Of a stretch of DNA of 64,000 bases, positions 43,937 to 59,800 are shown one piece after another. Below the pieces are notes generated by a model that searched no databases, was not told the DNA's origin, and worked only from the letters and a program-made list of their open reading frames with translations. Made by a program: the position numbers and the translations under genes. This DNA is from Bdellovibrionales bacterium (GTDB taxonomy: Bacteria > Bdellovibrionota > Bdellovibrionia > Bdellovibrionales > UBA1609). The stretch's first letter is position 1; each line of letters starts with the position of its first letter. Where the stretch lies: assembly GCA_965261545.1 (NCBI GenBank), contig CBDHDF010000007.1, positions 539,488-603,487 of the forward strand, in the 5' to 3' direction.

Positions 43937-44852
43937 TTAGTAACGTAGCTTTTTAATTGATCCGGACTTAAGTTTTTTAAAGTCAGATATGGTTTTTTTC
44001 TTATCTGGAAAGAGATAAGCCTTTGTTTTCTCGTGTTTTTTGACAATGATCCTCCCTTGTTTAATATGGTGATAAATCCAATGAACTTTAACATCAATAA
44101 GTGCTGCAATTTGAGATGTTGTGAGGCTTCCCTCGACTTTGGTCGGAAAAGAGTGCTTTCGATTCCGATAGATTTTATTGTTTAGTCTATAGGACTTCAC
44201 AGTATTTCTGAGAAAAGTGGTATCCATTGGTGATCTGAATCCTTTTTGGGTCAATAGTTTGGCAATATCTTCATCAGACACCCCAAGCTTGACCTGCTGC
44301 GCAATTATTTTCTTTATCGTTTCAGAAGATGACAGTTCATCAAAAGATCCAACTTTGATTGGAATGCTAGCTTCTGTTGTATCTCCTCCAATCCAAACAA
44401 TTCTCAGTGCAACCATATCTCTTTTCTTTCTGTGAATGACAACCTTTTCAACCAATGTTCTAAGAATTTTCTTTTTCATGTCTTTGGTCAATATCTTATC
44501 CTCCCATAGCGAAGGTAGTTTTTGATTCAAATCTGAAAATTCTCTTTTCATTTTTTGAGAGATCACAGTTGGAATACGCTGTTCATTCTTAACCCTCTCT
44601 AGGTGATCTTCGGCTTTTTTAAGTATTACTAAAGCCTCTTCCCATTGTGTTTCTAATTCATCTGCAACAAGTCTATTCTCAGGGTCTACTTTGCGATACC
44701 TCTTTTCTACCAGTTGAGCTTCATACCTTAAACGCTGAATTTGCTGAATGTGTGATTTGTAAACCTCTTGGTCAATTTTTGACTTATTTTCTAAAGCCTT
44801 GGCATACAAGTCTAGCTCGACAGGGGAAAGAACCTTAAAAAAAGCGTTTACT
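43937..44852 (-). pseudogene. Large serine recombinase, C-terminal part
   Basis: RLRYEAQL.E.RY..VDPENRLVA.ELE..WE coiled-coil signature; N-terminus lost at the adjacent IS4. Confidence 0.8.
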
Positions 44853-44879
44853 CATAGGTGTTCGTGGTTTTTAATTCTT

Positions 44880-46124
44880 TCATAGCAAGACCTTTTTAGC
44901 CATATTCATTGATGTTTTTCGCCGTCGGTAGTTTGTGTCATAAATTTCATGGGAGAATATCTTGATCTTCTCTATCAAAATATTTAAATACTTTTGAGAT
45001 GAGCTTAGGAGATATTTGATAAAATCAGAGGCTAATAAGACGGTAACCTTAGCAACTCTTTGAAACGATGTGGAGTCATTTTGTTCCTTATTGAGTTTAG
45101 TTCTTCCTATCCTCAAAACAACACTTGATGTGAGGTGAGCCGCTAATGAAGCAAGAAGAAGACTCTCTATGATATTTTGATCGTTTGAGGTGATCTGATT
45201 TGCATTCAAAGAATTCTTACAAGATTTGAAAATAAGTTCACATTGCCAACGTAAACGATAAATTGGATATATGGACTCCGCTGCCACATCTAAATTCGTG
45301 CAATACCAATGATAGCGTTTTTCGGAGGAATTCCAGAAGCCTACAATTCTCAAACTTACCCATTTACCATTGGACAAGACACTGCCTATAAATTCAACAA
45401 CATCGTTTTTTTTCTTGAGTTTAATATCAGAGAATTCTTTTCCAACATAGTAATCTGGCAAACCTTCAACAACAGCATCAATAAGAATAGAGGCATTTGA
45501 CTTCACTCTAGACAAGAAAAATCCTTTAGCTTCATGAATAGATGACAATAAGCCATAGTCCCAATATCCCAAATCAAAGATGACTAATTTTCCAACGAGT
45601 TCCTTTATATCAGGAAAGCACTTCCTATCGTTAGTGGAAGACGGAGTTAATTCGAACCAAGTCATTATACCACTGAATAAACTGAAACAAGCGTGCCATT
45701 TAATTCCTGCGTTTGTTCTTGTCCCTGGAAAATTCTCAGATGCTCCATCCCAAAGGCTTATTGTGCTTGAGTCAACAAGAAGAACGTCTGAGACTCCCAG
45801 TTGTAATAATATGGCTTTGCTCCCATGAAAAGCTCCATGAGATAGCTTTATCATGAGCATTTCAACCAGTTTACTCAGAAGCTCTTTTAATCTTTTTCTA
45901 GAGAGTCTTTCCCAGAAGCTGTGTCTTTCAATTCTTAATCCTAAATGACTTATCATAAACCTCCTAATTCCCTCTATTGAATATGTCTTAGAGTCTCCCT
46001 GGAATGACAAGACAAGAGCCACAATAAACTCAAGAGGTGGAATGGTTGCCCGAGAGTCCTTTTCAGGAATAACTTTCTTGAAACATTTTTTGATCGTTTT
46101 AAGTGTTTGAGCTTCCGTGCTCAT
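44880..46124 (-). CDS. IS4-family transposase
   Basis: LVDSS, IFDLGY, YRLRWQCELIFK..K. Confidence 0.93.
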   Translation of the reverse strand: MSTEAQTLKTIKKCFKKVIPEKDSRATIPPLEFIVALVLSFQGDSKTYSIEGIRRFMISHLGLRIERHSFWERLSRKRLKELLSKLVEMLMIKLSHGAFHGSKAILLQLGVSDVLLVDSSTISLWDGASENFPGTRTNAGIKWHACFSLFSGIMTWFELTPSSTNDRKCFPDIKELVGKLVIFDLGYWDYGLLSSIHEAKGFFLSRVKSNASILIDAVVEGLPDYYVGKEFSDIKLKKKNDVVEFIGSVLSNGKWVSLRIVGFWNSSEKRYHWYCTNLDVAAESIYPIYRLRWQCELIFKSCKNSLNANQITSNDQNIIESLLLASLAAHLTSSVVLRIGRTKLNKEQNDSTSFQRVAKVTVLLASDFIKYLLSSSQKYLNILIEKIKIFSHEIYDTNYRRRKTSMNMAKKVLL

Positions 46125-46229
46125 ATTTGCCCCCTGCGTTTAAAAAATAAAAATTTCCTCCAATTAATCTTGACCTATTAAGATACTAACGCGAGAATCA
46201 TTAAGTCTGTAGATAACTCACTTGTATCT

Positions 46230-46694
46230 ATGCGGATTCATTGTATTCGACAGGAGCAAAAAATAGCAATGATTTTTGGACTTTTAATATTACTTTCTTT
46301 GGGATCCTTTATATCTCTTCTTATTTCCTTATTGGTATTTGGATTTGGTTATTTACTGGCACTCATCCTCCCATTAACTCAGATGCAAGCATCTTCTTTG
46401 TTTTTTGCTTCACTCACACTTTTGGTTCTTACATGTATTTTTATGATGCTCATATCTCAATTTAAAAATCGTTACTTTCACCAGAATCTAGGAGATATTC
46501 TTTTTGATAATTTGGATGAGGATTTGGAAGATGAAAAGCAAAAAAAAATTGTAACTGAAGATATGTCTGCATCACAGCAGAAAAATGACCAAAGCGAAAA
46601 AATTGGAAGAAATCAATCCTGTCCATGCGGAAGTGGAAAGAAATTTAAATTCTGTTGTTCCCAAAAGTCCACAGTTCTTTCGTTACACAATTAA
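46230..46694 (+). CDS. SEC-C (zinc-binding) motif membrane protein
   Basis: N-terminal TM helices; KIGRNQSCPCGSGKKFKFCC. Confidence 0.85.
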   Translation: MRIHCIRQEQKIAMIFGLLILLSLGSFISLLISLLVFGFGYLLALILPLTQMQASSLFFASLTLLVLTCIFMMLISQFKNRYFHQNLGDILFDNLDEDLEDEKQKKIVTEDMSASQQKNDQSEKIGRNQSCPCGSGKKFKFCCSQKSTVLSLHN

Positions 46695-47566
46695 GTCTCT
46701 TAAAACACATGGCTTGTCGTGGATATCAAATGTCAATCTGCGTCCATTTCTCAAAATACCATCTATAAATATTTATAAATCGCCCACTTCCCTCTATGTA
46801 AAAAAGGAGGCTTGAAAAGTATTTCCATTAATTCGGAATTAAAATTAGAAAAAAACCACGAACACCTATGAGGTCCACCGTTATTACCACTCAACTGCCA
46901 ATAACGCATTGGTCAGAAATTATTGATGATGAGGTGCTGGCAGATACTATCATCGACCGTTTGAAGCATACCGCCATAAAAATTTTACTTAAAGGAGAGA
47001 GTTATCGAAAAATCCAGGGAACAAAACTTGACCAGGACTTTTCCCTAAAATAGGAAGAAATAGGATTACAAATTAACTAAAATTTTCCCCAGAAATGGGA
47101 AGGAAAATCATCAATGACGCATTGAAATAGGGAAAGTGAGGGTAATGGGTGCAACCAGTGCGGGCAATACGTGCAATTGTACAGTTCTGGCAATGATTTT
47201 TTAGAAAGAGGTTACAATAGAGATGGCGATAACTTGGACCAAACCAACTTAGGAATTTTAAGTCAAGACATAAAAATAGATTCAAAGTCTAAGAGTGCGA
47301 GTCTTCCAATTAGTTACAGAGTATATCCTGGTAGCATCAATGATGTGACTACTTTGAATAATATTCTGTAACATTCATGGGGGCGCCTTGCTTCCCCACC
47401 CACGCCCATGAATCTTATCTAGGCCCCCACTTCTTTGCACGAAGCAACTCGGTGGACAGCTTCGCTGGTCTATATAATTGGCCTCTTTTAGTTACTCTGG
47501 ACTTTTGATGGTATTTTTGTCATGTATGATTCCGATACAATAAAGGATAAAGCAATAACATTATTG

Positions 47567-47760
47567 GAAGGTGATAAGATGAGTGGCCGTTGAATAGATT
47601 GGTAATTTTAATTCCGTGAAGTAACATGGTCTTGAGCTTTGGATCGAACCCACGCATGTACCTGCACTCTGAGTGTATGGACGTATAGTAAGTTGACCTA
47701 TTTTCGCTTTAGAATTTATGGCAAAATCCCAAGGCTCTAGTTTTATCACCTTCTTTTTTT
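47567..47760 (+). ncRNA. Candidate IS110 bridge RNA
   Basis: Closing stem GAAGGTGATAA (47567-47577) / TTATCACCTTC (47743-47753) followed by a T-run; two internal-loop hairpins with target-matching and donor-matching segments. Confidence 0.75.
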
Positions 47761-49059
47761 CTAACAGAAAGGAGGAGTCATGTGGATATTATTTATAGTT
47801 CTGTTTGTGGAATAGATGTTCATCAACATATGTTGATGTGTACGATTGTCAAAGTGGAAGACGGTAAGAAGAAGTTTTTCACAAAAGAGTTCAAGAATTT
47901 TCCAAAAAATTTTCCTAGAATGCGCTCTTGGATGAAGCCACATAAGGTTGAGAGAGTTCTTTTTGAGAGCACAGGGATTTATTGGAATTCTTTATACGAT
48001 GATTTGACAGAAAAAGGTTATGAAGTAGATGTTATCAATGCCTTTCATGTCAAAAATATTACTGGTAAAAAAACTGACGTGTTGGATAGCCAGTGGATTG
48101 CAGAGCTTGGTGCTTGTGGTCTTCTAAGAGCTAGCTTCATTCCTCCACGTGAGATTCGTTCTATTAGACTTTTGGCTCGTTATCGTACAAAAACGATCCG
48201 CCAAATATCTTCGGAACAAAATCGTATGTATAAGGTTCTTGAATATTCAGGCATTCGTTTAACCTATGCAATGTCTAAAGCTGACTGCGTATCTGGTATG
48301 GCCATGATTCGTGCCATAGCTAATGGAGAGAGATCAGTTTCTAAATTGATGTCTCTTGCCAGAGGGTCTTTACGTCAAAAGACCGAAGAATTTTCTTACG
48401 CCCTGTCGGGAAAGATGACGGAAGAAAATCGTTTTGTTCTTCAACGCATTCTTGATCGAATAGATTTTTTGAAAAAAGAATGCTCTCAAATTGAAGAAGA
48501 ACTTTTCATTCGTATGAAACCCTATGAAAGGCAGTGGCATCTACTCCAGACTATACCTGGAATTGACGAATTAAGTGCAGCGCTTTTGATTGCAGAAATA
48601 GGAGGCAATGTGAAGTCTTTTAAAAATAAAGGAAATTTTTGCTCCTGGATGGGGATTTGCCCATCCAATAATGAGAGCGCAGGAAAAAAAAGTCTTCACG
48701 AACGAGGAAAGCGAACACATATGTGAAATCGTTGGTATGTGAGATGGCCAATAGTGTTAGGCGCCAATTAAAATTGGCCATTTTTAGAAGCCGTCGCCAA
48801 TGAAAAACGGCCAGTTGATGATGTACTGATTTAGTTATTCTTCGTTCAGAGTTTAGTCAAGTGTCTTTATTTTGCTCATCATTTAACTCGGACTATGCCA
48901 CAAGATTCTGAGGAATGATTTTCTACCCACCACTTTTGGCATGACCCCAAATGCATCCTTCAGCCCTATGGCAGAGGTAAATGGAGTATTTTTCAGGATT
49001 CCTTGGCGCAGCTAATGTCTAAATCTCCGCGAGAGTGACGAGCAAATAGTACGGTAAAA

Positions 49060-49156
49060 GCCAGTTATCCATAAATTTATCCATGGCGACACTGCGGCTG
49101 TGACCCCGATGTCTAGCAACGCAGTGCTGCTGTGGATAAATTTATGGATAACTGGC
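49060..49156. repeat. Large palindrome with 24-bp perfect arms and DnaA-box-like 9-mers
   Basis: GCCAGTTATCCATAAATTTATCCA ... TGGATAAATTTATGGATAACTGGC downstream of istB. Confidence 0.85.
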
Positions 49157-49183
49157 GAGTTCCTTCCCCAAAAGTGGGGATCT

Positions 49184-49966
49184 CTAATGAACTTCTTTGG
49201 TTGAACTTTCCTCTTTGCTCTGTTTAGACTTGGCTTTTGCGGATTCGGTTCTCCAACTTTCTTTTCCTTCAATGTTGAGGGTTTCACAGTTGTGAATAAT
49301 TCGATCAACAGCAGCAGCGGTGGTAATAGGGTTAAGAAACACCTTATCCCATTCAGAGTAAGTTAAGTTTGTAGTGATCATGAGACTTTTCCTTTCATAT
49401 CGCTGAGATATGAATTGAAAGAAAAGATCAGCACCCTCTGTGCAGGAAGCTGTATAGCCAAGTTCATCACAAGCAATAAGATCAAAACGGTCTAATTTCT
49501 TAAAAAGAGCATTCAATGAGAGTTCTTTCTTGCTTTCACGCATTGTTTCAATAAGTTCATGAGTGGTGACCCATAAACATCGATAGCCTTGTTCACAGAG
49601 TGAACGAACTAGGGACATGGCCAAATGACTTTTCCCCATTCCAAAGCTTCCGTAAAACACAACATTACAGGCTTTTCTGACCCACTCTCCCTCTGCCATC
49701 CGATTAATTTTCTGAGCTGTCACTCCCGTTCTTTTCTGGAAGTTATAAGTTTGGAGTGATTTAAGTTGAGGAAGCTTGGCCCCCTTAAGCAATCTTTTCA
49801 CTCTCTGGGAATGCTTGTCAGCAAGCTCATTTTGAACGAGTATACCTAAATACTGTTCATACGTCTTTTTTGTTTTTTCGGCAACTCTAGCCGTTGCAAC
49901 ATATTCATCCGCCATCGCTGGAAGTCGGAGTTTTTTAAGAGAACCTATAAGTTCTTCGTGATTCAT
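49184..49966 (-). CDS. istB: IS21 helper ATPase
   Basis: GSFGMGKSH, DELGY, RYERKS..ITTNL, DRIIH. Confidence 0.95.
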   Translation of the reverse strand: MNHEELIGSLKKLRLPAMADEYVATARVAEKTKKTYEQYLGILVQNELADKHSQRVKRLLKGAKLPQLKSLQTYNFQKRTGVTAQKINRMAEGEWVRKACNVVFYGSFGMGKSHLAMSLVRSLCEQGYRCLWVTTHELIETMRESKKELSLNALFKKLDRFDLIACDELGYTASCTEGADLFFQFISQRYERKSLMITTNLTYSEWDKVFLNPITTAAAVDRIIHNCETLNIEGKESWRTESAKAKSKQSKEESSTKEVH

Positions 49967-51570
49967 TAAGAACCTCCTATGTTTGGAACAAGACTGTCAT
50001 ATTGAGACAATCTAGGTTGAAGTGGTTTTTGTTGGTCATTCAAATTAATTTTGGTGGGATTGCCTAAGAGCAAATCTTTTATGGATTTAAAGTCGAAAAT
50101 CTCACGACTTTCTAATTGAAGCTCCATGGCTGTAGATAAGTCCTGCCAACTCACATGCTGAATCAAGTTGATAACTCTTAAATATTCATGCTCGGCACGG
50201 CTTGAATCTTGTTGCTTGAGGTATTGATAAAAATTTTCAAACACATTTGTTGGAAAAAGAATGGATCGGTGAGCCCATCTTACCATGGCTTGCGGCTTAC
50301 GAACTAAAGAAGGAAGGATATGTTCAAGAAGAAGACTATGCTCCCCATCAGGTTTTCTTTGATGGCGAGCGACAATTTCTTGCTTCCCTCCTGCACGATA
50401 GATCGTGACATGATAGGGACCCTGTACGGTTTTACAGGGAGATTGGATCACCTCATCAGGTATGGAATATGTGGTTTTACCTATTCTCAAAGTCCCATAA
50501 CCATTACTTTGACAAATATTCACCTTACAGAGAATATCTTCATCTCGTGGAGGCAAAGGCTTAAGAACTTTGGCCTCCTCCTCAAAGCGAGATTTGGTGG
50601 AGTCACTCTGATGCTGATCCATATAAGACTCTAAAAACTGATTCAAATGATCCCAGTCTTTAAAAACAATTCCTTTGTTTCTAACAATATTTTTTATCCG
50701 AGAACTGAAGGTTCGAATATCACGCTCCACATCTCCCTTGTCAGAGCCCTTCCCTGCGCGGCAGGGAAGAACCTTAAATCCATAGTATTGGATGGCTCGA
50801 TCAAAAGATTGGGTGTAAATTCGCTGATTTCCTTTAAGAACTTTCTTCACACAGGGAGATAAATTATCAATACGGATGTTCGCACTCATCCCACCTATCT
50901 TTTCAAAAAAAGCATGCACCCCATCGATGAAACACTCATAGACAAGAAAGGGGTAGGCACGAACCCAACAGGTGCCACTACAAGGCAATGTTCCAAAATG
51001 GAGATGAACGATCTGAACACCATCGGCAAATGGTAAAGCAACCTTCTCCTTAAAATCAAACTGAGCCTGTTCTCCAGGATCATATCTTTGGCTGAAAAAA
51101 CGCTCCTTGGGGCGAGAACCAAGAATCTCACAAACTCTTCTCTGAACCGTTCTCTCACTCCCACGATAACCCTCCTCAACTAATAGCTCATATATTTCAC
51201 GGGCGGTGTTACTTGGGTTCAACTTCAAAAAGTACTTCACCCGATCCATATATCCATTAAGGGGATCTGGGCGAGTTCTTTTGGACCTCGCCTTGTACTT
51301 CGGTGGGGTGTTGGACTCACAGTACTTGCGCACCGTCTTACGATTGATCCCTAATTCACGAGATATTTCTGTCTTATTTTTACCACTGTGACTCAGGTCA
51401 CGAATGCGGCCGAAAGTGTATTGACTAATCATAAGATCCTCCTCATTGCTAACCTTTTGAGTTGCAAAAGGGAGGGACTCTGTGAGCTTAGTATCTATAT
51501 CAGAAGAAGAGACTTCATTGTCTAGTATTTGAACACTCCCTGAAGATTGGTCACTTTTCATTGGCGACAA
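49966..51570 (-). CDS. istA: IS21 transposase (true start probably MISQY near 51432)
   Basis: EISRELGINRKTVRKY HTH, PGEQAQFDF, IDN, KGDVER. Confidence 0.95.
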   Translation of the reverse strand: MSPMKSDQSSGSVQILDNEVSSSDIDTKLTESLPFATQKVSNEEDLMISQYTFGRIRDLSHSGKNKTEISRELGINRKTVRKYCESNTPPKYKARSKRTRPDPLNGYMDRVKYFLKLNPSNTAREIYELLVEEGYRGSERTVQRRVCEILGSRPKERFFSQRYDPGEQAQFDFKEKVALPFADGVQIVHLHFGTLPCSGTCWVRAYPFLVYECFIDGVHAFFEKIGGMSANIRIDNLSPCVKKVLKGNQRIYTQSFDRAIQYYGFKVLPCRAGKGSDKGDVERDIRTFSSRIKNIVRNKGIVFKDWDHLNQFLESYMDQHQSDSTKSRFEEEAKVLKPLPPRDEDILCKVNICQSNGYGTLRIGKTTYSIPDEVIQSPCKTVQGPYHVTIYRAGGKQEIVARHQRKPDGEHSLLLEHILPSLVRKPQAMVRWAHRSILFPTNVFENFYQYLKQQDSSRAEHEYLRVINLIQHVSWQDLSTAMELQLESREIFDFKSIKDLLLGNPTKINLNDQQKPLQPRLSQYDSLVPNIGGS

Positions 51571-52412
51571 CCTCCATATTGAAAGTGGGACATTTTAATT
51601 GGCGACGGCTTTAAGGGAAGCCTGTCTTCAGAAAGAAATTCCATGAAAATTGAGGCAAATGTTGGAATCTTGTGGAATTTAAATACTTTAGAAAATGGGC
51701 ACAGCCTAAACAGGCTTTTCTTGACTATATATTTAACCTCATTGAAATCCAGAAACAGTCTACAAATGACAAATATGGAACCTGAATAGGCTGTCATGGA
51801 AGGACTCTCCAACACGGAGCCCCTTTCCAGGTCGACAAGAACCCAAAAGGAGTTCTTATCAGCTCGGAGCCTTTTTATGAGTAATATCAATTGATTATAT
51901 GCGTCTCGGTTGACAATGCCAAAAATCACCATAGGTCCTCCTCTGAAAAGTGGCCACTTTTCATTGGCGACGGTGGGGCATTTTAATTGTCAGCTAACAA
52001 ATAGTGCTATTAAGACGAATTCACAATTCAAAGGCAAATACCAATCACTTGTTATAAGGCGTGGGCACAAGAGATCAGTGATTGCCGTTGGTCACAAAAT
52101 GATGGGAGTTGTTTATTCAGTCATAAGTAATGACACCCCCTACAAAGACCCTGGAATTGACTATGAAAAGCTCATGGTGAAAAAAAATGCACCAAGGTGG
52201 ATTAGAGCGTTAAAAAAGTATGATTTCATGTAATGTAGGATGATTTAAAAACTCGGACATTTGAAAAAATTCGAAGAACGGATAGTGGATTCGTGCGTCC
52301 AAACTACCCCGGAGATTCATAGTAACTATTCAGGGGGTGGGCGAATTCGAGTCATAAATGAGGGAAGTTTTCCTTGAAATAGCATATTTAGAGCATCTTT
52401 AGGTTCTATGCC

Positions 52413-54301
52413 GGGACTGTAAAAATAATTGTGTAACTGCAATTTTTTTCTTAAATCTTAAAGCCACTTATGTGGCTCCACTCCTGGTAAAAAGCACAGT
52501 CCCATATTATTCGTCAATGTATAATTGACATTTTTTCCTTCAAGCGATTTTGTCAGTCACAATGCATTATAAGTTAATGGGGAGGTGGACATCTTCGCTG
52601 GTCTATATAATTGGCCTCTTTAGTTACTCTGGACTTTTGATTGTATTATGGAGCCGTAATGGGATCATATCAGAACTGGAAAGAACTCAAATAAATAATT
52701 ATCATCTTGGTTGAAAAAAAATCAGCAATGGCTCTCTCAAAAAAATGGAAATTCCAATCTCATCAAAGGGTTCATGTGTTTAGGTTCCCATACTATATTA
52801 CCCCCTTTTTTTTATTTTTTTTAACTTAGGATATTCGAGAAATACCAGAATTGGGATGAAATATGAAAAAAAATGGGAACCCAAATCTGCACCAAGAGGG
52901 CATGTATTTAGGTTCCCATACTATATTACCCTAACCATAGTCTCGGTATTCCAGTACTTCTGTCAACGCCTTAGAGGGGCTTTTAAGCCCCCTTATAAGG
53001 CAGGTGGTGGACCTTATTAAAAAACTTAGTTGTCAAAACGGTCACCGTATTCAATGGCAAACCTGTTCATGGCTGGCTTCCAGTTGTGTAATGGTCGTGT
53101 CCATCGCTTAGAGGCCATTTTTATCGCTAAATATACAACTTTTAAAGCCGACCGATCACTGGGAAATATCTTACGATTTCTGATCGCCTTGCGGATCACG
53201 CTATTTAACGACTCTATGGCGTTTGTGGTATAAAAAATCTTTCTGATTTCATCCGGATAATCGAAAATAGTGATGAGATTGTCCCAATTCCTACGCCAAG
53301 ACTTTTCAATATTCGGATACTTTGAAGACCACTTGGTACAAAATTCCTCAAGGGCCTTTTCAGCTTCTGTCAGAGTCGTAGAGCCATAAATGGACTTGAG
53401 GTCTTGGGCGACAGCTTTCATATCCTTGGAAGGAACATAGCGAAGGGAATTGCGGACCATATGGACAATGCACAGTTGTACTTTAGACTTGGGAAAAGCC
53501 GCTGAAATGGCTTGAGGAAAACCTGTAAGACCATCTACAGAAAATATAAATACGTCTTTCAACCCTCGATTTTGCAGCTCAGTCAAAACACTCAACCAAA
53601 ACTTTGAACCCTCATTTTCAGAAATCCATAGGCCCAACAAGTCTTTCTGACCCTCCTCTGTAATACCAAGAGCTAGGTAAATCGCCTTATTAATAACTCT
53701 CTTGTCTTGATGGACCTTCACCACGATACAGTCCAAAAATACGATAGGGTAAGTGCTATCCAAGGGGCGGTTCTGCCAAGCCGTAACTTCATCAATAACA
53801 GCATCCGTCACGTTGGCTATCACTGAGTGGGATATCTCTGCACCATGGTAGAGGTCTTTGATAGCTCCTTGAATATCCCTGGTCGTCATTCCCCTCGCAT
53901 AGAGGGTCAGAATACTGTCTTCAAAGCCCTCAAGACGAGTCTTGCCTTTGGGAATGACTTGGGGCTCAAAGGAGGCACTTCGGTCACGGGGGACCTGAAG
54001 CTCCACCTCGCCTTTCTCTCCCTTTATGGTCTTTCTACTGTAACCATTGCGAGTGTTGGATTTGCGGGTCTCAGACTTCTCATGCCTCTCATAACCTAGG
54101 TGATCGTCCATTTCCGCATTAAGAGCTGTCTCTAAAACAACCTTCATCAGTTGACTCGTTATGTCGGATAAATCCTTTTGGGTCTTGACGTTCTTCGCTA
54201 GTTCCTTGCCTATTGTCTTGATATCCATTTTGCCTTCTCCTTTCAGGATGATAGTTCATCCTAATATGATTCGGCAGTTACACAAAATAGTTTACAGGCT
54301 C
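52413..54301 (-). mobile_element. IS256-family element, copy 2, inside the IS66 transposase 3' end
   Basis: Near-identical to 594-2482; 8-bp TSD TCTATGCC. Confidence 0.95.
53026..54228 (-). CDS. IS256-family transposase
   Basis: Two amino-acid differences from 1207-2409. Confidence 0.97.
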   Translation of the reverse strand: MDIKTIGKELAKNVKTQKDLSDITSQLMKVVLETALNAEMDDHLGYERHEKSETRKSNTRNGYSRKTIKGEKGEVELQVPRDRSASFEPQVIPKGKTRLEGFEDSILTLYARGMTTRDIQGAIKDLYHGAEISHSVIANVTDAVIDEVTAWQNRPLDSTYPIVFLDCIVVKVHQDKRVINKAIYLALGITEEGQKDLLGLWISENEGSKFWLSVLTELQNRGLKDVFIFSVDGLTGFPQAISAAFPKSKVQLCIVHMVRNSLRYVPSKDMKAVAQDLKSIYGSTTLTEAEKALEEFCTKWSSKYPNIEKSWRRNWDNLITIFDYPDEIRKIFYTTNAIESLNSVIRKAIRNRKIFPSDRSALKVVYLAIKMASKRWTRPLHNWKPAMNRFAIEYGDRFDN

Positions 54302-55659
54302 TCTATGCCATTTTTCTGGCAAGTCAGGAGAAAGCTTCGGTTTCTACAAAATGTCTTGGCTCCCATCAACGAACGAAAGCACCCAGATATTTTCTGCTGA
54401 ACTTTGGTCATTCTCAGATCATTTTCTGCTATATTATTCGTAAATGGAACTATGGGGTCCTTCATAAATAGCAAGGTATCATCTTCAAAGTTTCTCAGTC
54501 GATCTAGTAAATTTCTAGATTTGGATTGTTTAACCTTTCCCTTCTTTTTTTTCTCTGTCCTCTCCATTAATGGAGATTCCTTTTCCCCTTCGAAGAGAAT
54601 ATTTCGATATTTCTCTTTGTAATATTCAATTCGGTCTTGTGAAAGGCATTGGTTCTGCGTATCGTGCACCTCTTTGTTTATTGTCTCTAAAAGAGACTTC
54701 ATTTCTTTTGCCCATTTTTGATCATCTTGCTCCCAAGCTCTTTGAAGCTCCCTTAAATGGTGCGCATTGCAAAGGGCATGAATGCAGGAAGTATATGTAT
54801 AATAAGGTTTCCAATGGTCATGACAAACAATCCCTGTGTATTTTGGAAGAATTCCCATGCGATCCATAGCCTCTGCGCCTCTTTTTTCGTCCACCTGATA
54901 GAGAACCACAGTATCATTGGACAAGAGGTGAAACCACAGCCTCTTCCCATTAACATTCACTCCAGTTTCGTCAGCATGAATCAAAGGTGAGTTCAGAAGA
55001 GTTTCCTTTGCCCACTCCTCAAAAGCTTCCAGAGCCTCAAAGGCAGATTTGTTAAAATTGTGTACCGTAGATCCAGCAAGCGATAGACCCCATTGATTAA
55101 AGTAACTTGCGACTCGAAGATGAGGGATTAACTGAAACTGGGACATATAAACTGAGTGAGCTTTCACAGAAGGGCCATATTGAGTTGGGTTATTGATTCC
55201 TTCTGGAAAACCTGCAACCCACTGATTCCCATCTTGGTCTTCGAGGATTTCTCCTTGATACTCCGTGACATGCACAGAAAGGTCTACCTCAAATACTTGA
55301 CGCTTTTCAACTCCAGAAGAAATGTAATCACCTGGAGGAAGTTCCTCTTTATTAATAGAAATGAACTCCACCTTGTCTGGAGTATCCACGGGTTTTAAAG
55401 TAGCTCCTTCGTGTCCGGGTTGTCCTCCTGGCTTCTTACCAGTTTCTTCCTTAGGTTTCTTTTTAGGGCCATTCGGATCTTGAGAAGGGGCAATACTACT
55501 GTTTTGACTATTTAATTTTTTTTGATTTACTAGAATAGTGATGATTTTGATCAACAACTCAATGGCCACAATAAAAGCGGGAGAAAGGGACTTCTCTTTC
55601 TTAAGAAGCTTCCTGATTTTATTTATGGCTGAAGACACGTCAATATTTTCTATTTTCAT
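54302..55659 (-). pseudogene. IS66 transposase; last ~28 codons lie at 52412-52326 beyond IS256
   Basis: NS.NSS.APS.D, GGQPGHEG, HADETG, HALCNAHHLREL, PFTNN.AE.DLRM.K; restored tail ...GIEPKDALNMLFQGKLPSFMTRIRPPPE with its stop inside the TIR. Confidence 0.92.
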
Positions 55660-55933
55660 ACTTACCTTATGAAAATATTAACATGCCTTTTTTTCATTAA
55701 AAAAAATGCACTAGGATTCGTTCTAAGAAGCAAAAGGAATGAGAAGTGCCCCCCGCGACCTATGTTTCACAATCTTTCAATACTATGGCTCTCAGAGAGT
55801 TTAAGCCATATGCAGGAACATATTCGATAAAGAACAAATGAAAGAGGTCGTTTGCTTCAAAAACTTGTCAAGAATTTTTATACTTTTTTTAAAAAAATTG
55901 TTCGAATTAATGCAGCACCCCCTGAATAGTTAC

Positions 55934-56836
55934 AATATTCTTACTTTAGCTAAGGAGTACAAAATCAATCTAAAATGTTTGGTTTTAGACAAAGGATTTT
56001 ATAGCCAAAGCAATATCAAGGACTTGGATGATAAAGGACTATCTTATATTATCCCTATGAGCTTTGTGTCAAATCTTTCCAAAGAACTTGTAAATTCCTT
56101 ATCTTCTAACCTTTCGTCTTCGGCTTCAGCATTTGGTTTCCAAGGAGATACCTATTGGTATTGTCAGAAAGAGATAAAAATAGGGAAGGTAGATTGTGTA
56201 GCCCACCTATATTTGGACAAGAAAAAAAGAACTCAACAAGAGTCTAAATTTCTTGCAAAGATATATGAATTTGAAAATATTTTCTATCAGAAGACGTTTC
56301 AAGATGAATCTTCTTGTCGCACCTATATAAATGATACTTTCGGAGTTCAAAAGAAATTTTTTAAGATTAAAAAGGAGAATGAATATTTTGTTTTAGAAAG
56401 AAATGTGGATGATCTTGAGGTAGAAATCAATCGCATGGGGTGCGTCATCCTTCTAACAGATTCTAAGATAAATATCTCTAGGGATGAGGTACTATCTTTG
56501 TATAGAAACAAAGATAGTATAGAAAAAATATTCTTCTCTTTAAAGCATAATCTTAATGAAAAAAGAAATAGAATGCATTCTCTTCAAAATATGAAAGGAA
56601 GTCTTTTTATTAACTTTATAGCCTTGATTCTAATTTCATGGATCGATCATGTAATGAAAGAAAAGGAACTTTATAAAGATTTTTCAAAAGATGAAGTCTA
56701 TAAAATATTAGATCGCTTGAAATTTTATAAGTTAGCAACAGGTAAGGTCGTTTTGGGAGAAATATCAGGGAAGCAGAAGACTATTTACTCAGCCTTTAAC
56801 ATAGGAACTCATGTGGATCACAGGTTTAAAATATAG
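55934..56836 (+). pseudogene. IS1634-type C transposase, C-terminal piece
   Basis: VLDKGFYS, YRNKDSIEK.F..LK; in frame with 47184-47367 across the TSD. Confidence 0.9.
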
Positions 56837-57066
56837 TGTATTCGTTGCTTTAGAGCCTGTCGAGCCTGTCCTCATAATGAAATTGTACTTCAGTTTCCAT
56901 ACCTTAATCCAGTCGAAAAGAAACAAAGGAGGCAAAGATTTATTTATTTTGAGTATACAAAAAAATAATGGCCACTATTCTTCTCATTGAAGGCAGGTCT
57001 TAGGTCTTGGTTTATGCAAGCCTTTGGTCCTGAAACCTAGTCATAACTGAAGGGGATTTCAGGAAA

Positions 57067-59800
57067 TTAAGCTTCATCGTAGTCCCACAATGCCCCTAAG
57101 TCTAACTCTATCGCATCAAATGGCGGGGCCAAAGCCTTATCGTTTTCTGTAAAACCAATCTCCATTCGGTAATTTTGATCTTGAAAAGCAAAAATCTCCA
57201 AGGTTCGAGCAATGGGGTCTATCACCCAATAATACGGGATGCCATTAGCAGCATATATTCGCATCTTTGAAATTCTGTCATAGCGTGCCGTGGATGGAGA
57301 CAAAACCTCACAAACCCAATCTGGAGGTAATTCAAAATAAGATGTTTCTGGAAGTTTTGGGAGACGGTCTTTTTTCCAACCTGCTAAATCAGGCACAATC
57401 ACATTGTATTTCTCTTTTTTTTGAGTGGGATTTTTAAAATGAAGCTCCGGCTCATAAATAATCCACCAGCCTCCTGGCCCCCCGTTTCCGAATTGAAAAG
57501 GCCCTCCAATTTTAACCACTAAAGATGAAGAAGTCACCGCATGTCTCGGAGCAGGTCTTGGTGAAGTAATTCCCGAGTTTGACAGCAGCATCTGCGTTAA
57601 AATGCGAAATTTCCAGAAATTGGGGTTGTACTGAAATATAATGGTAGCTGCTGGAAAAATTAAAATTGACGTAAAAAAAGTGTAGAAAACAAAATAGGAT
57701 TTTATCGTTTTAAATATTGATATATCATAGAAATATGTAGAAAATATCCTCATGTACATCCAAACGACTAAAAACTCAAAAGGTCAGTGCTACTACCACC
57801 TTGTGGAGTCCTACAGAGAAAAAGGCAAATCCAAAAAACGCATGCTCATGTCCTTAGGTAAGGCTGGAGAAGGAGGAGAGGATAAGATTAATAGTTTGGC
57901 GCAGGCGTATCCCGCCACCGAGAGCTTCTCACTGTGAGTCAATTGGCTAAGGAGCTTTACATCGAAGAGACTTTCATTTTGGGTCCCTTGCTGATTTTAC
58001 AAAAGTTGTTTGATCAACTGGGTATCAATAAGACCCTCAAAGACATAAAAGATTCTCATGAGAAAGTTCAATTTGATTTATGTAAGGTGATTTTTACCTT
58101 AGTTGCCAGCCGATTTATTGCTCCTAGTTCCAAGTTAAAGGTTTTTGAGTATTGGCAAAAATCTTTTTACCCAGACATGATTAAGGGTGATTTGAGTCTC
58201 CAGCATATTTATCGGTCTATGGACTTACTTGCCTCCCATAAGGATGAAATAGAGAACTCGCTTTATTGGGTGGGGCGAGATTTATTTAATTTCCAAGTAG
58301 ACATTGTGTTGTATGATTTAACAACCTTACGCTTCGAGAGTACAAGAACAGACTTAGGGAAACTTCGTCAATTTGGCTATAGTAAAGAGAGACGATCAGA
58401 CTGCACCCAAGTTGTCTTTGGTTTGTTGGTGAATCGGGATGGCATCCCTTTAGGTTTTGAGGTTTTCCCTGGTAATACTTTTGAAGGCAAGACGCTTTCA
58501 GATATTGTTGATAAAATGAGAAAAAAGTTTAATGTACGCCGTTTCATTTTTGTGGCTGATAGGGGGCTTTTATCAAAGGCTAATACTGACAAACTCAGTG
58601 AGGATCAAAGCGAGTTTATTGTTGGTATGAAGCTTGGATCTTTAAAAAAAGAAAAGAAACAAGAGGTCTATGATTTAAATCGTTTTAGCTGGGTATATGA
58701 GAATGAGCTTGCTGTTTACGAAACAGACCATGGGGGGCATAGATGTATTGTGACTTGGTCTAGGAAAAGAGCAGAGAGGGATAAAAAATCTAGAGAATCC
58801 CTTCTTGAAAAGATCGAAGGAAAACTATCTTCTAAAGGTGTTCAGTCTAGTACTTTTGTTTCCAATAAAGGTTATAAGAAATATGTAAAGATGGCTGACG
58901 ACAAAAATAAAAAACCTGAATTAAATGCAGAACAAATAGAATTAGATGAAAAAATTGATGGTTTTTTTGCCGTCCTTACAAATGTCAAAGACTTGACGGC
59001 AGATGAGATTATTATCAACTACAAAGAATTGTGGAAAATTGAAGATGCTTTTGGTGAGTTAAAAGGGACTTTGAAAACACGTCCTGTTTTCCATTGGACA
59101 GACCAGAGGATTATTGGACATTTAACTCTATGCTTTTTAACTTATCTTTGTGAGGCCCACCTTACAAAATGTTTAAGAGATAAGAAGATGAACCTAAAAA
59201 GCCCAGCCATAGGCATTGGTCATGTTAAAGAGCGACCTTTAACTGTTGTAGAGGCCATGAGGGAACTCAAGGAAGTTAGGGCTATCCCTGTTAAAATTCG
59301 TGATCAAGTCATTTGGACCCGCACAGATATCACTGGCAATGCCAACTCCTTATTTAAAGCCGCAGGCGTCCCCATCCCTCCCAGAATCCTTAATGCCCAC
59401 AAGTGTGGATAAACAAAATACAACTATATGCGTTAATCCTTTAATATCATTCGTTTGACGCAGATGCTGCTGTCAAACTCGGGAGTTTTGGGAGACGGTC
59501 TTTTTTCCAACCTGCTAAATCAGGCACAATCACATTGTATTTCTCTTTTTTTTGAGTGGGATTTTTAAAATGAAGCTCCGGCTCATAAATAATCCACCAG
59601 CCTCCTGGCCCCCCGTTTCCGAATTGAAAAGGCCCTCCAATTTTAACCACTAAAGATGAAGAAGTCACCGCATGTCTCGGAGCAGGTCTTGGTGAAGTAA
59701 TTAACTCATCATTAAAAATCTCACCCACAACATTTTCTGGTAAATCACACAATTCTTCCCACAAGCTTAAATATGTCTTTACTCTCTCTGCTTTGCTCAT
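57067..59800 (-). pseudogene. Uma2-family endonuclease split by IS1634-type A
   Basis: GEI...L..SPRP...H, EPELH, VPDLAGW, PDWVCEVLSPST..D...K...YA..G...YW..DP. Confidence 0.9.
57572..59483 (+). mobile_element. IS1634-type A, copy 3 (1-nt deletion near 57906), with 219-bp direct repeats
   Basis: Same TIRs; DR at 57353-57571 and 59484-59702. Confidence 0.96.

Follow-up and report, generated by a model that had tools for sequence, protein, structure and literature searches.

A predicted bridge RNA of an IS110-family insertion sequence aimed at the terminal inverted repeats of IS66-family elements

Results

Nested insertion sequences at the locus

The window (the whole stretch of DNA that was analysed, 64,000 nucleotides) contains several insertion sequences nested within one another (Table 1). 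An IS4-like transposase gene runs from 47171 to 47367 and resumes at 55942, being split by an IS66-family element that occupies 47368-55933 (PF03050, 1.4e-49; NF033517, 277 bits) and is the host of an IS110-family element. The IS66-family element has an IS66-type DDE transposase, terminal inverted repeats (TIRs; 21 nt at 95%, starting with GTAACTATTCAGGGGGTG) and an 8-bp target duplication, such a duplication being typical of IS66. The IS110-family element lies at 47373-52326, placed after the fifth base of the IS66 left end, and its boundary is ambiguous over the GTAAC present at both junctions. This GTAAC is the stretch common to target and donor and contains the core, TAA or probably AA, the two bases that are invariant in both loops across the RNA family described below. 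An IS21-like element (IstA/IstB, 48755-51999, duplication AATAG) sits inside the IS110 recombinase gene, and for this reason the window copy is 4954 bp long. An IS256-family element (52413-54301) is nested in the same IS66 copy, with a minus-strand transposase (53026-54228; NF033543, 430.6 bits) and inverted ends at 52417-52440 and 54274-54297; at least 24 full-length copies of it are present in the genome.

The new left junction, GTAAC/ATTCATGGGGGCG (47368-47385; slashes mark junctions), resembles the intact IS66 end GTAAC/TATTCAGGGGGTG (52322-52340), and its run of G residues is absent from the IS110 homologs. This likeness may be due to chance, or it may be mimicry through which the IS66 end stays usable.

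Table 1. Positions of features of the nested elements and of the predicted RNA within the window.
Feature	Positions	Strand	Remarks
8-bp target duplication of IS66, AATATTCT	47360-47367 and 55934-55941
GTAAC, outermost 5 bp of IS66 terminal repeat	47368-47372	+	repeated at right junction, 52322-52326
Left non-coding end of IS110 element, 409 nt	47373-47781	+	about 35 copies at 99-100% identity
Left-end hairpin, ATTCATGGG / CCCATGAAT	47373-47412	+	arms 47373-47381 with 47404-47412
65-nt dispersed repeat, outside RNA family	47451-47515	+	second copy 52584-52647
Bridge/seek RNA core (predicted), then T run	47566-47755	+	190 nt
Closing helix P1, GAAGGTGATAA / TTATCACCTTC	47567-47577 with 47744-47754	+	changes on both sides in 10/12 pairs, 17 sequences
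Loop 1, target-binding (predicted)	47585-47631	+	basal stem GGCCGT 47585-47590 / ATGGTC 47626-47631; inner hairpin ~47601-47616
Loop-1 5' guide (predicted), UUGAAUAG	47590-47600	+	pairs with gene-sense C/TATTCAG (52326-52333)
Loop-1 3' guide (predicted), GUAAC + AU	47621-47627	+	identical to left junction GTAAC/AT (47368-47374)
Loop 2 region, donor-binding (predicted), multi-branch	47634-47737	+	P3 47634-47642 with 47729-47737
Invariant motif CGAACCC in loop 2	47645-47651	+
Candidate left-end guide, CCCACGCATGT	47649-47659	+	overlaps invariant motif and apical helix
Loop 2 apical helix (helix 4)	47657-47662 with 47679-47683	+	changes on both sides in 3/5 pairs
Loop-2 3' guide (predicted), AUAGUAA	47685-47691	+	identical to right end ATAGTAA (52319-52325)
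IS110-family recombinase gene, broken in window copy	47782-52233	+	coding resumes ~52005
Right non-coding end of IS110 element, 93 nt, ending ...GATTCATAGTAAC	52234-52326	+	family motif wTTCAyrkTAA
Remainder of interrupted IS66 terminal repeat, TATTCAGGGGGTGGGCG...	52327-52344	+
IS66 transposase gene	54292-55659	-
Other IS66 terminal repeat, CACCCCCTGAATAGTTAC on + strand	55916-55933	-	unoccupied

Recombinase, ends and copies of the IS110-family element

An intact copy of the IS110-family element, found elsewhere in the genome, is 1705 bp long and encodes a 400-aa recombinase (NF033542, 245.5 bits against a cut-off of 140). The recombinase has a DEDD/RuvC-like domain and a Tnp domain (PF01548, 2.9e-23; PF02371, 4.3e-14), and the conserved Ser motif G..P....S is kept in the recombinase alignment. 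Comparison with the intact copy indicates that the gene in the window is broken both by a poly-A run (48684-48691) that is one base short and by the IS21-like insertion, and the window copy is unable to make its own recombinase. Located just after the conserved Ser motif, the poly-A run has nine residues (A9), which keeps the frame, in 14 copies; 18 copies have A7, and three, among them the window copy, have A8. These differences represent either a slippage-prone on/off tract or homopolymer errors of the assembly.

The copy number in the genome (4.3 Mb in 11 contigs) is about 35, based on 35 right ends and 34 full left ends. The left end is approximately 130 nt longer than in the homologs, the distance from the start of the element to the RNA being 196 nt as compared to 49-77 nt, and part of this extra length is accounted for by a 64-65-nt repeat. 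The repeat contains TATAAT and has 91 BLAST matches in the genome, 36 of them in IS110 left ends and about 50 outside these, mostly away from IS66 ends; some IS256 copies are without it. The founder IS110 copy seems to have acquired it as a small mobile repeat. Within the 3' arm region of the left-end hairpin, ATGAATC (47407-47413) is inverted relative to GATTCAT (52314-52320) near the right end. A 7-bp inverted repeat of this kind is conserved in the family, as CTTTCAy 5 nt from the right tip and rTGAAAG about 35-45 nt inside the left end, the latter preceded by CACCCC in the homolog loci.

A conserved RNA structure upstream of the recombinase gene

An earlier note on this DNA, made from the letters alone, had proposed an RNA of about 190 nt, closed by an 11-bp stem, upstream of the DEDD recombinase; every position and motif that it gave is exact in the sequence. 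For comparison, 159 homolog loci were fetched, of which 16 (recombinases 40-48% identical) had an upstream region that could be aligned, resulting in an alignment of 17 sequences. A search of the 159 loci by nhmmer with the RNA profile reached 23 matches, so more distant elements were inspected by hand. Recombinase relatives number in the thousands in metagenomes at 45-50% identity; a contig search with the single recombinase protein gave no close relatives, and among 40 related genomes searched distant matches (32-33% identity) were found in just two.

The alignment contains the invariant blocks GGTCG, TAAC, CGAACCC and TAA, with variable stretches between them, and supports five helices with 32 pairs. 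When the sequences were scored against these helices, 83.3% of 540 cells were paired, compared to 38-48% when the partners were slid by one to three columns. Compensatory changes on both sides were observed in 26 of the 32 pairs, including all seven of helix P3 (helix 3) and three of the five in the loop-1 stem (helix 2), which was paired in 92.9% of its cells. None of 500 shuffles reached any of the observed measures, and RNAalifold recovered 23 of the 32 pairs unaided. Loop 2 is a multi-branch structure made up of P3, the apical helix and a further hairpin, not a simple internal loop. Because the homologs are related to one another, both these statistics and the permutation statistics given below overstate independence; despite this kinship, the signal for a conserved RNA structure is strong.

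The single sequence gave a more modest result. Its fold had a z of -2.47 relative to shuffles, 4 of 200 shuffles being as good, and the minimum free energy structure (-54.4 kcal/mol) is without the loop-1 stem, enforcement of the family stem resulting in -30.8 kcal/mol, a cost of about 24 kcal/mol. The fold alone would therefore not carry the claim; it is the family alignment that supports both the closing and the loop-1 stems of the earlier note. No Rfam 15 match was found over 44000-58000 at E up to 1, nor did a scan of the + strand at 47300-47850 find a sigma-70-like promoter or a terminator.

Covariation of loop sides with the insertion junctions

We propose a mechanism in which the RNA would be transcribed, bound by the recombinase and used in an IS621-like strand exchange. 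Two loops would be held by the long closing helix. The 5' side of loop 1, UUGAAUAG, would pair with the gene-sense strand of C/TATTCAG, and the 3' side, GUAAC, with the opposite strand of GTAAC, the following AU extending in a handshake-like manner into the first bases of the element. The two sides of loop 1 together would thus specify the tip of the IS66 TIR, with recombination taking place within TAA, five bases from the IS66 end, and the 3' side of loop 2, AUAGUAA, would read the right end of the element. By composition, GUAAC AU contains a short target guide, the core and two handshake-like bases that are the element's own first bases. On the 5' side, a bulge of A47598 might allow the UU at 47599-47600 to base-pair with the AA core.

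We compared the loop sides with the junction sequences. The left junctions of the 17 loci were set by a guide-independent pattern; that of one locus (L139) is mislocated, to the disadvantage of the signal. Here, the 3' side of loop 1 agreed with the flank at positions -4 to -1 in 44 of 68 comparisons (permuted mean 25.5) and with the left end at +1 to +3 in 33 of 51 (permuted mean 21.7), in neither case with any of 10000 permutations as high. Identity at flank positions -2 and -1 and element positions +1 and +2 was 0.71, 0.94, 0.82 and 0.94 for cognate combinations, compared to 0.23, 0.73, 0.72 and 0.31 for non-cognate ones. The match of ATAGTAA in loop 2 to the right end, also pointed out in the earlier note, extends to the family: positions -4 to -1 and the core were identical to the right end in all 13 loci with a readable right end, four loci being left out because the right-end motif or sequence was missing. 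The 3' side of loop 2 followed the right end where this is variable (ATAG, CGGC, ACAT, ACAG and others), and over positions -6 to -1 there were 59 matches out of 78 (permuted mean 44.6; 0/10000 as high). The handshake positions of loop 2 gave no signal (11 of 26 matches vs 8.6; 1750/10000 permutations as high). Three more distant two-copy elements share the pattern of the 3' sides, both of which have the sequence of the gene-sense strand. In 14 single-copy homolog loci, the match between the 5' guide of loop 1 and the right flank was weak, the mean best run being 5.4 in cognate and 4.7 in non-cognate combinations.

A model with all four guides, in which CCCACGCATGT serves as the guide for the left end, was part of the earlier note. 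Its attraction is that 9 of the 11 positions of CCCACGCATGT agree with the left-end complement, and that the donor guide of IS621 is discontinuous (PMC11208160). Four of the nine matches, however, fall in the invariant CGAACCC(C) and three in the conserved apical helix; CCC(A) belongs to CGAACCC, which is the same throughout the family whatever the left end. In addition, gapped scoring over 16 loci, with L139 excluded because of its mislocated junction, gave no excess of the cognate score (126) over the permuted one (121.2), 1100 of 5000 permutations being as high. The data therefore do not support CCCACGCATGT as the left-end guide, and we consider the full four-guide model unlikely. More generally, neither ungapped inspection nor gapped scoring of loop 2 gave an excess for a left-end guide in the complementary sense; in the identical sense there was a small excess (89/5000 permutations as high). 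Covariation with the junction sequences is found for the 3' sides of both loops.

Target choice in the genome

Among the 35 right-end junctions, 15 continue with the TATTCAGGG.. of the IS66 repeat, 8 with the next IS110 copy and 12 with other sequence, and TAA is found after all 35. Non-tandem full left ends are preceded by GTAAC in 22 cases and by TTAAC in one, and the left flanks outside GTAAC are diverse. Insertion thus occurs without duplication, with a shared core, and at a specific site and orientation. These data indicate that the IS66 TIR is an actual insertion site of the element, and the tip GTAAC/TATTCAGGGGG is the one read by TGAATAG (47591-47597) and GTAAC (47621-47625) of loop 1, both as originally proposed.

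The exact 16-mer GTAACTATTCAGGGGG occurs 32 times in the genome, and 14 of these sites are occupied, with both IS66 end types represented (6 and 6). Three variants that differ by one or two bases are the ends of related IS66-family elements: GTATC.. (13 occurrences), ..TGTTCA.. (10) and GTACC..CAAGGGG (7), none of which is occupied. The difference between exact and variant ends, 14/32 vs 0/30, has a Fisher p of 2e-5. The free exact sites, of which there are 18, include TGAATAGTTAC at 55923-55933 in the window, described in the earlier note as an unoccupied target. The 5' guide of loop 1 is backed by these occupancy data, specifically by the 14/32 for exact sites vs 0/10 for the TGTTCA variant. 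Off-target sites starting with TAAC keep 7, 6, 5, 5 and 4 of the 8 bases predicted to pair with this guide. The occupancy pattern amounts to a natural specificity experiment and fits guide-directed targeting.

A potential concern with the occupancy data is that IS66 transposition with the IS110 element as passenger, and not fresh IS110 insertion, could account for some of the occupied IS66 ends. In its strong form, this explanation holds that most of the junctions are copies of one or two old insertions. Passenger copying would have been helped by the resemblance of the new left junction GTAAC/ATTCATGGGGG to an intact IS66 end, and all IS110 copies are nearly identical; the occurrence of occupied ends in IS66 copies at many genomic sites is expected from either process. 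However, both end types are occupied (6 and 6), 18 exact ends are still free, the IS110 element also occupies sites outside IS66 where the guide match is partly kept, and the covariation among homologs is left unexplained. We consider the strong form improbable, and it concerns the history of the copies, not the identity of the RNA.

Quite implausible in our view is recognition of the IS66 repeat by the recombinase protein alone, with the structured region a 5' leader for expression control and the matches coincidental: the lack of the loop-1 stem in the single-sequence fold and the little signal of the loop-1 5' guide in single-copy homologs would suit it, but the 3' sides of both loops change with the junctions across homologs using different sites, as is not expected of a leader, the matches occupy variable loop positions of a conserved fold, and the IS110 family is experimentally RNA-guided (PMC11208160, PMC11187229). 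We thus favor, at a probability of about 85%, the reading that 47566-47755 encodes the bridge (seek) RNA of the 1705-bp IS110-family element, with loop 1 aimed at the tip of the IS66 TIR.

Guide order and comparison with known systems

The pairing predicted above places the 5' side of both loops on the gene-sense (top) strand and the 3' side on the bottom strand, and this order, top-strand complement first, was found in the window element, the 16 homologs and three more distant elements. Because the 5' sides pair with the top strand in both loops, the guide order is the IS1111 one. The IS110-type order, with the bottom-strand match 5' of the top-strand match, is described for IS621 and ISEc21 (PMC11208160, PMC11187229) and was not found here. 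Both loops accordingly read the strand opposite to that read in IS621, in agreement with the earlier note. The recombination products stay the same if target and donor are both flipped, so the arrangement is mechanistically equivalent; judged from the pairing, the reversed order would amount to a donor site inverted relative to the RNA gene.

Like IS621 (PMC11208160, PMC11208158), the element combines a recombinase of DEDD and Tnp domains with an RNA of roughly 180 nt located upstream in the left end, has the target loop first and the donor loop second, and reads both strands around a shared core with each loop; the short target guide is followed by two bases that agree with the donor, like the handshake guides of PMC11208158. 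It differs from IS621 in its reversed guide order, in its core ((T)AA as compared to CT), in its multi-branch donor loop and in its recombinase of 400 aa, where PMC11187229 gives 315-330 aa for IS621-type recombinases. According to the same paper, 400 aa is the size class of the subgroup that holds IS110 itself.

Like the IS1111-type seekRNAs of ISEc11, ISPa11 and ISKpn4 (PMC11187229), the RNA has the top-strand complement 5' of the bottom-strand match, and donor-binding bases in a multi-loop are noted for many IS1111 members in PMC11208160. According to PMC11187229, however, IS1111-type RNAs lie downstream of a transposase of 330-350 aa and the elements carry, close to each end, a subterminal inverted repeat of 7-17 bp, whereas the present element has the RNA upstream, a protein of 400 aa, a right end of 93 nt and a single 7-bp repeat with its left arm about 35 nt inside.

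The genome also contains a second IS110-family element, of the IS1111 type, which is 2026 bp long and present in 3 copies (C7:185639-187664, C11:752299-754324 and C7:466498-469711). Its subterminal inverted repeats measure 14 bp, and its gene is followed by a long region (830 nt) in which 6-7-mer matches are too many to fix a strand convention.

Discussion

IS4321 and IS5075, members of the IS1111 family, reportedly use the terminal repeats (38 bp) of Tn21-family transposons as insertion sites (Partridge and Hall 2003). The element described here likewise belongs to the IS110 family and specialises in the TIR of a different mobile element, with one orientation and one position; it differs in that its prey is an IS66-family insertion sequence instead of a Tn3-family transposon, and in subgroup and RNA position. 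The novelty that the earlier note saw in the pairing of RNA and target was overstated, since targeting of TIRs is known from IS4321/IS5075 and the reversed order is published for IS1111-type seekRNAs (PMC11187229). What is new is the target, an IS66-family end, the bridge-RNA mechanism itself being already known. A literature search, in the titles and abstract openings it covered, gave no report of an IS110-family element targeting IS66 terminal inverted repeats, and IS66-family ends can be added to the termini of mobile elements that the IS110 family targets.

The one feature that might go beyond known bridge-RNA elements is the combination of guide polarity with upstream position. A tentative reading, for which we would give somewhat less than even odds, is that a large IS110-type clade joins an upstream RNA and a recombinase of about 380-400 aa with IS1111-type polarity and a multi-branch donor loop, and in this genome is also an IS66 parasite. 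If so, the clade would include the window element, its relatives at 40-48% identity and at least three relatives at 33-37%, and it would unite traits so far described only apart, the upstream RNA with large recombinase on the one hand and the IS1111-type polarity on the other. Plasmid-borne recombinase relatives 33-37% identical over residues 1-378 include Streptomyces records; enterobacterial plasmid-borne matches cover part of the protein at 23-28% identity. In the published passages searched, no statement was found of an upstream RNA with the IS1111-type order, and a literature search gave no paper on bridge RNAs of IS900, IS117, IS116, IS1110 or IS901. Wide mining of bridge RNA variants is reported in a 2026 preprint (10.64898/2026.10.21.760802).

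If such a clade exists, guide polarity would be separable from the location of the RNA gene, since the donor site has an inverted orientation with respect to that gene, and a division into IS110 and IS1111 types by RNA position would miss how the RNAs read DNA. In this genome, the IS110 element would also be a parasite of another insertion sequence, one that discriminates single-base variants of its prey's end and has a left end that mimics the prey's repeat. Confirmation of the polarity in the clade would bear on the reading and reprogramming of bridge RNAs of the larger IS110-type recombinases and on the evolutionary path between the IS110 and IS1111 arrangements. For the specificity of a bridge recombinase, the genome offers a natural data set, in which occupancy can be scored at 32 perfect and 30 near-perfect sites.

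Copies of the IS110 element also form head-to-tail tandem arrays (for example C7:122497-126500), with 8 right-end/left-end junctions in all; these chromosomal junctions would mimic a circle junction in a junction PCR. One right end (C10:1009936) is fused to the RNA gene of another copy at ATAGTAA/GTTGACC, in the DNA encoding the right-end guide. Tandem repeats are described as by-products of an IS110 element in 10.1101/2025.10.25.684509, and 'half-match' recombination at the donor arm in 10.64898/2026.08.31.748434. The tandem arrays and the right-end/RNA-gene junction would fit these published behaviours.
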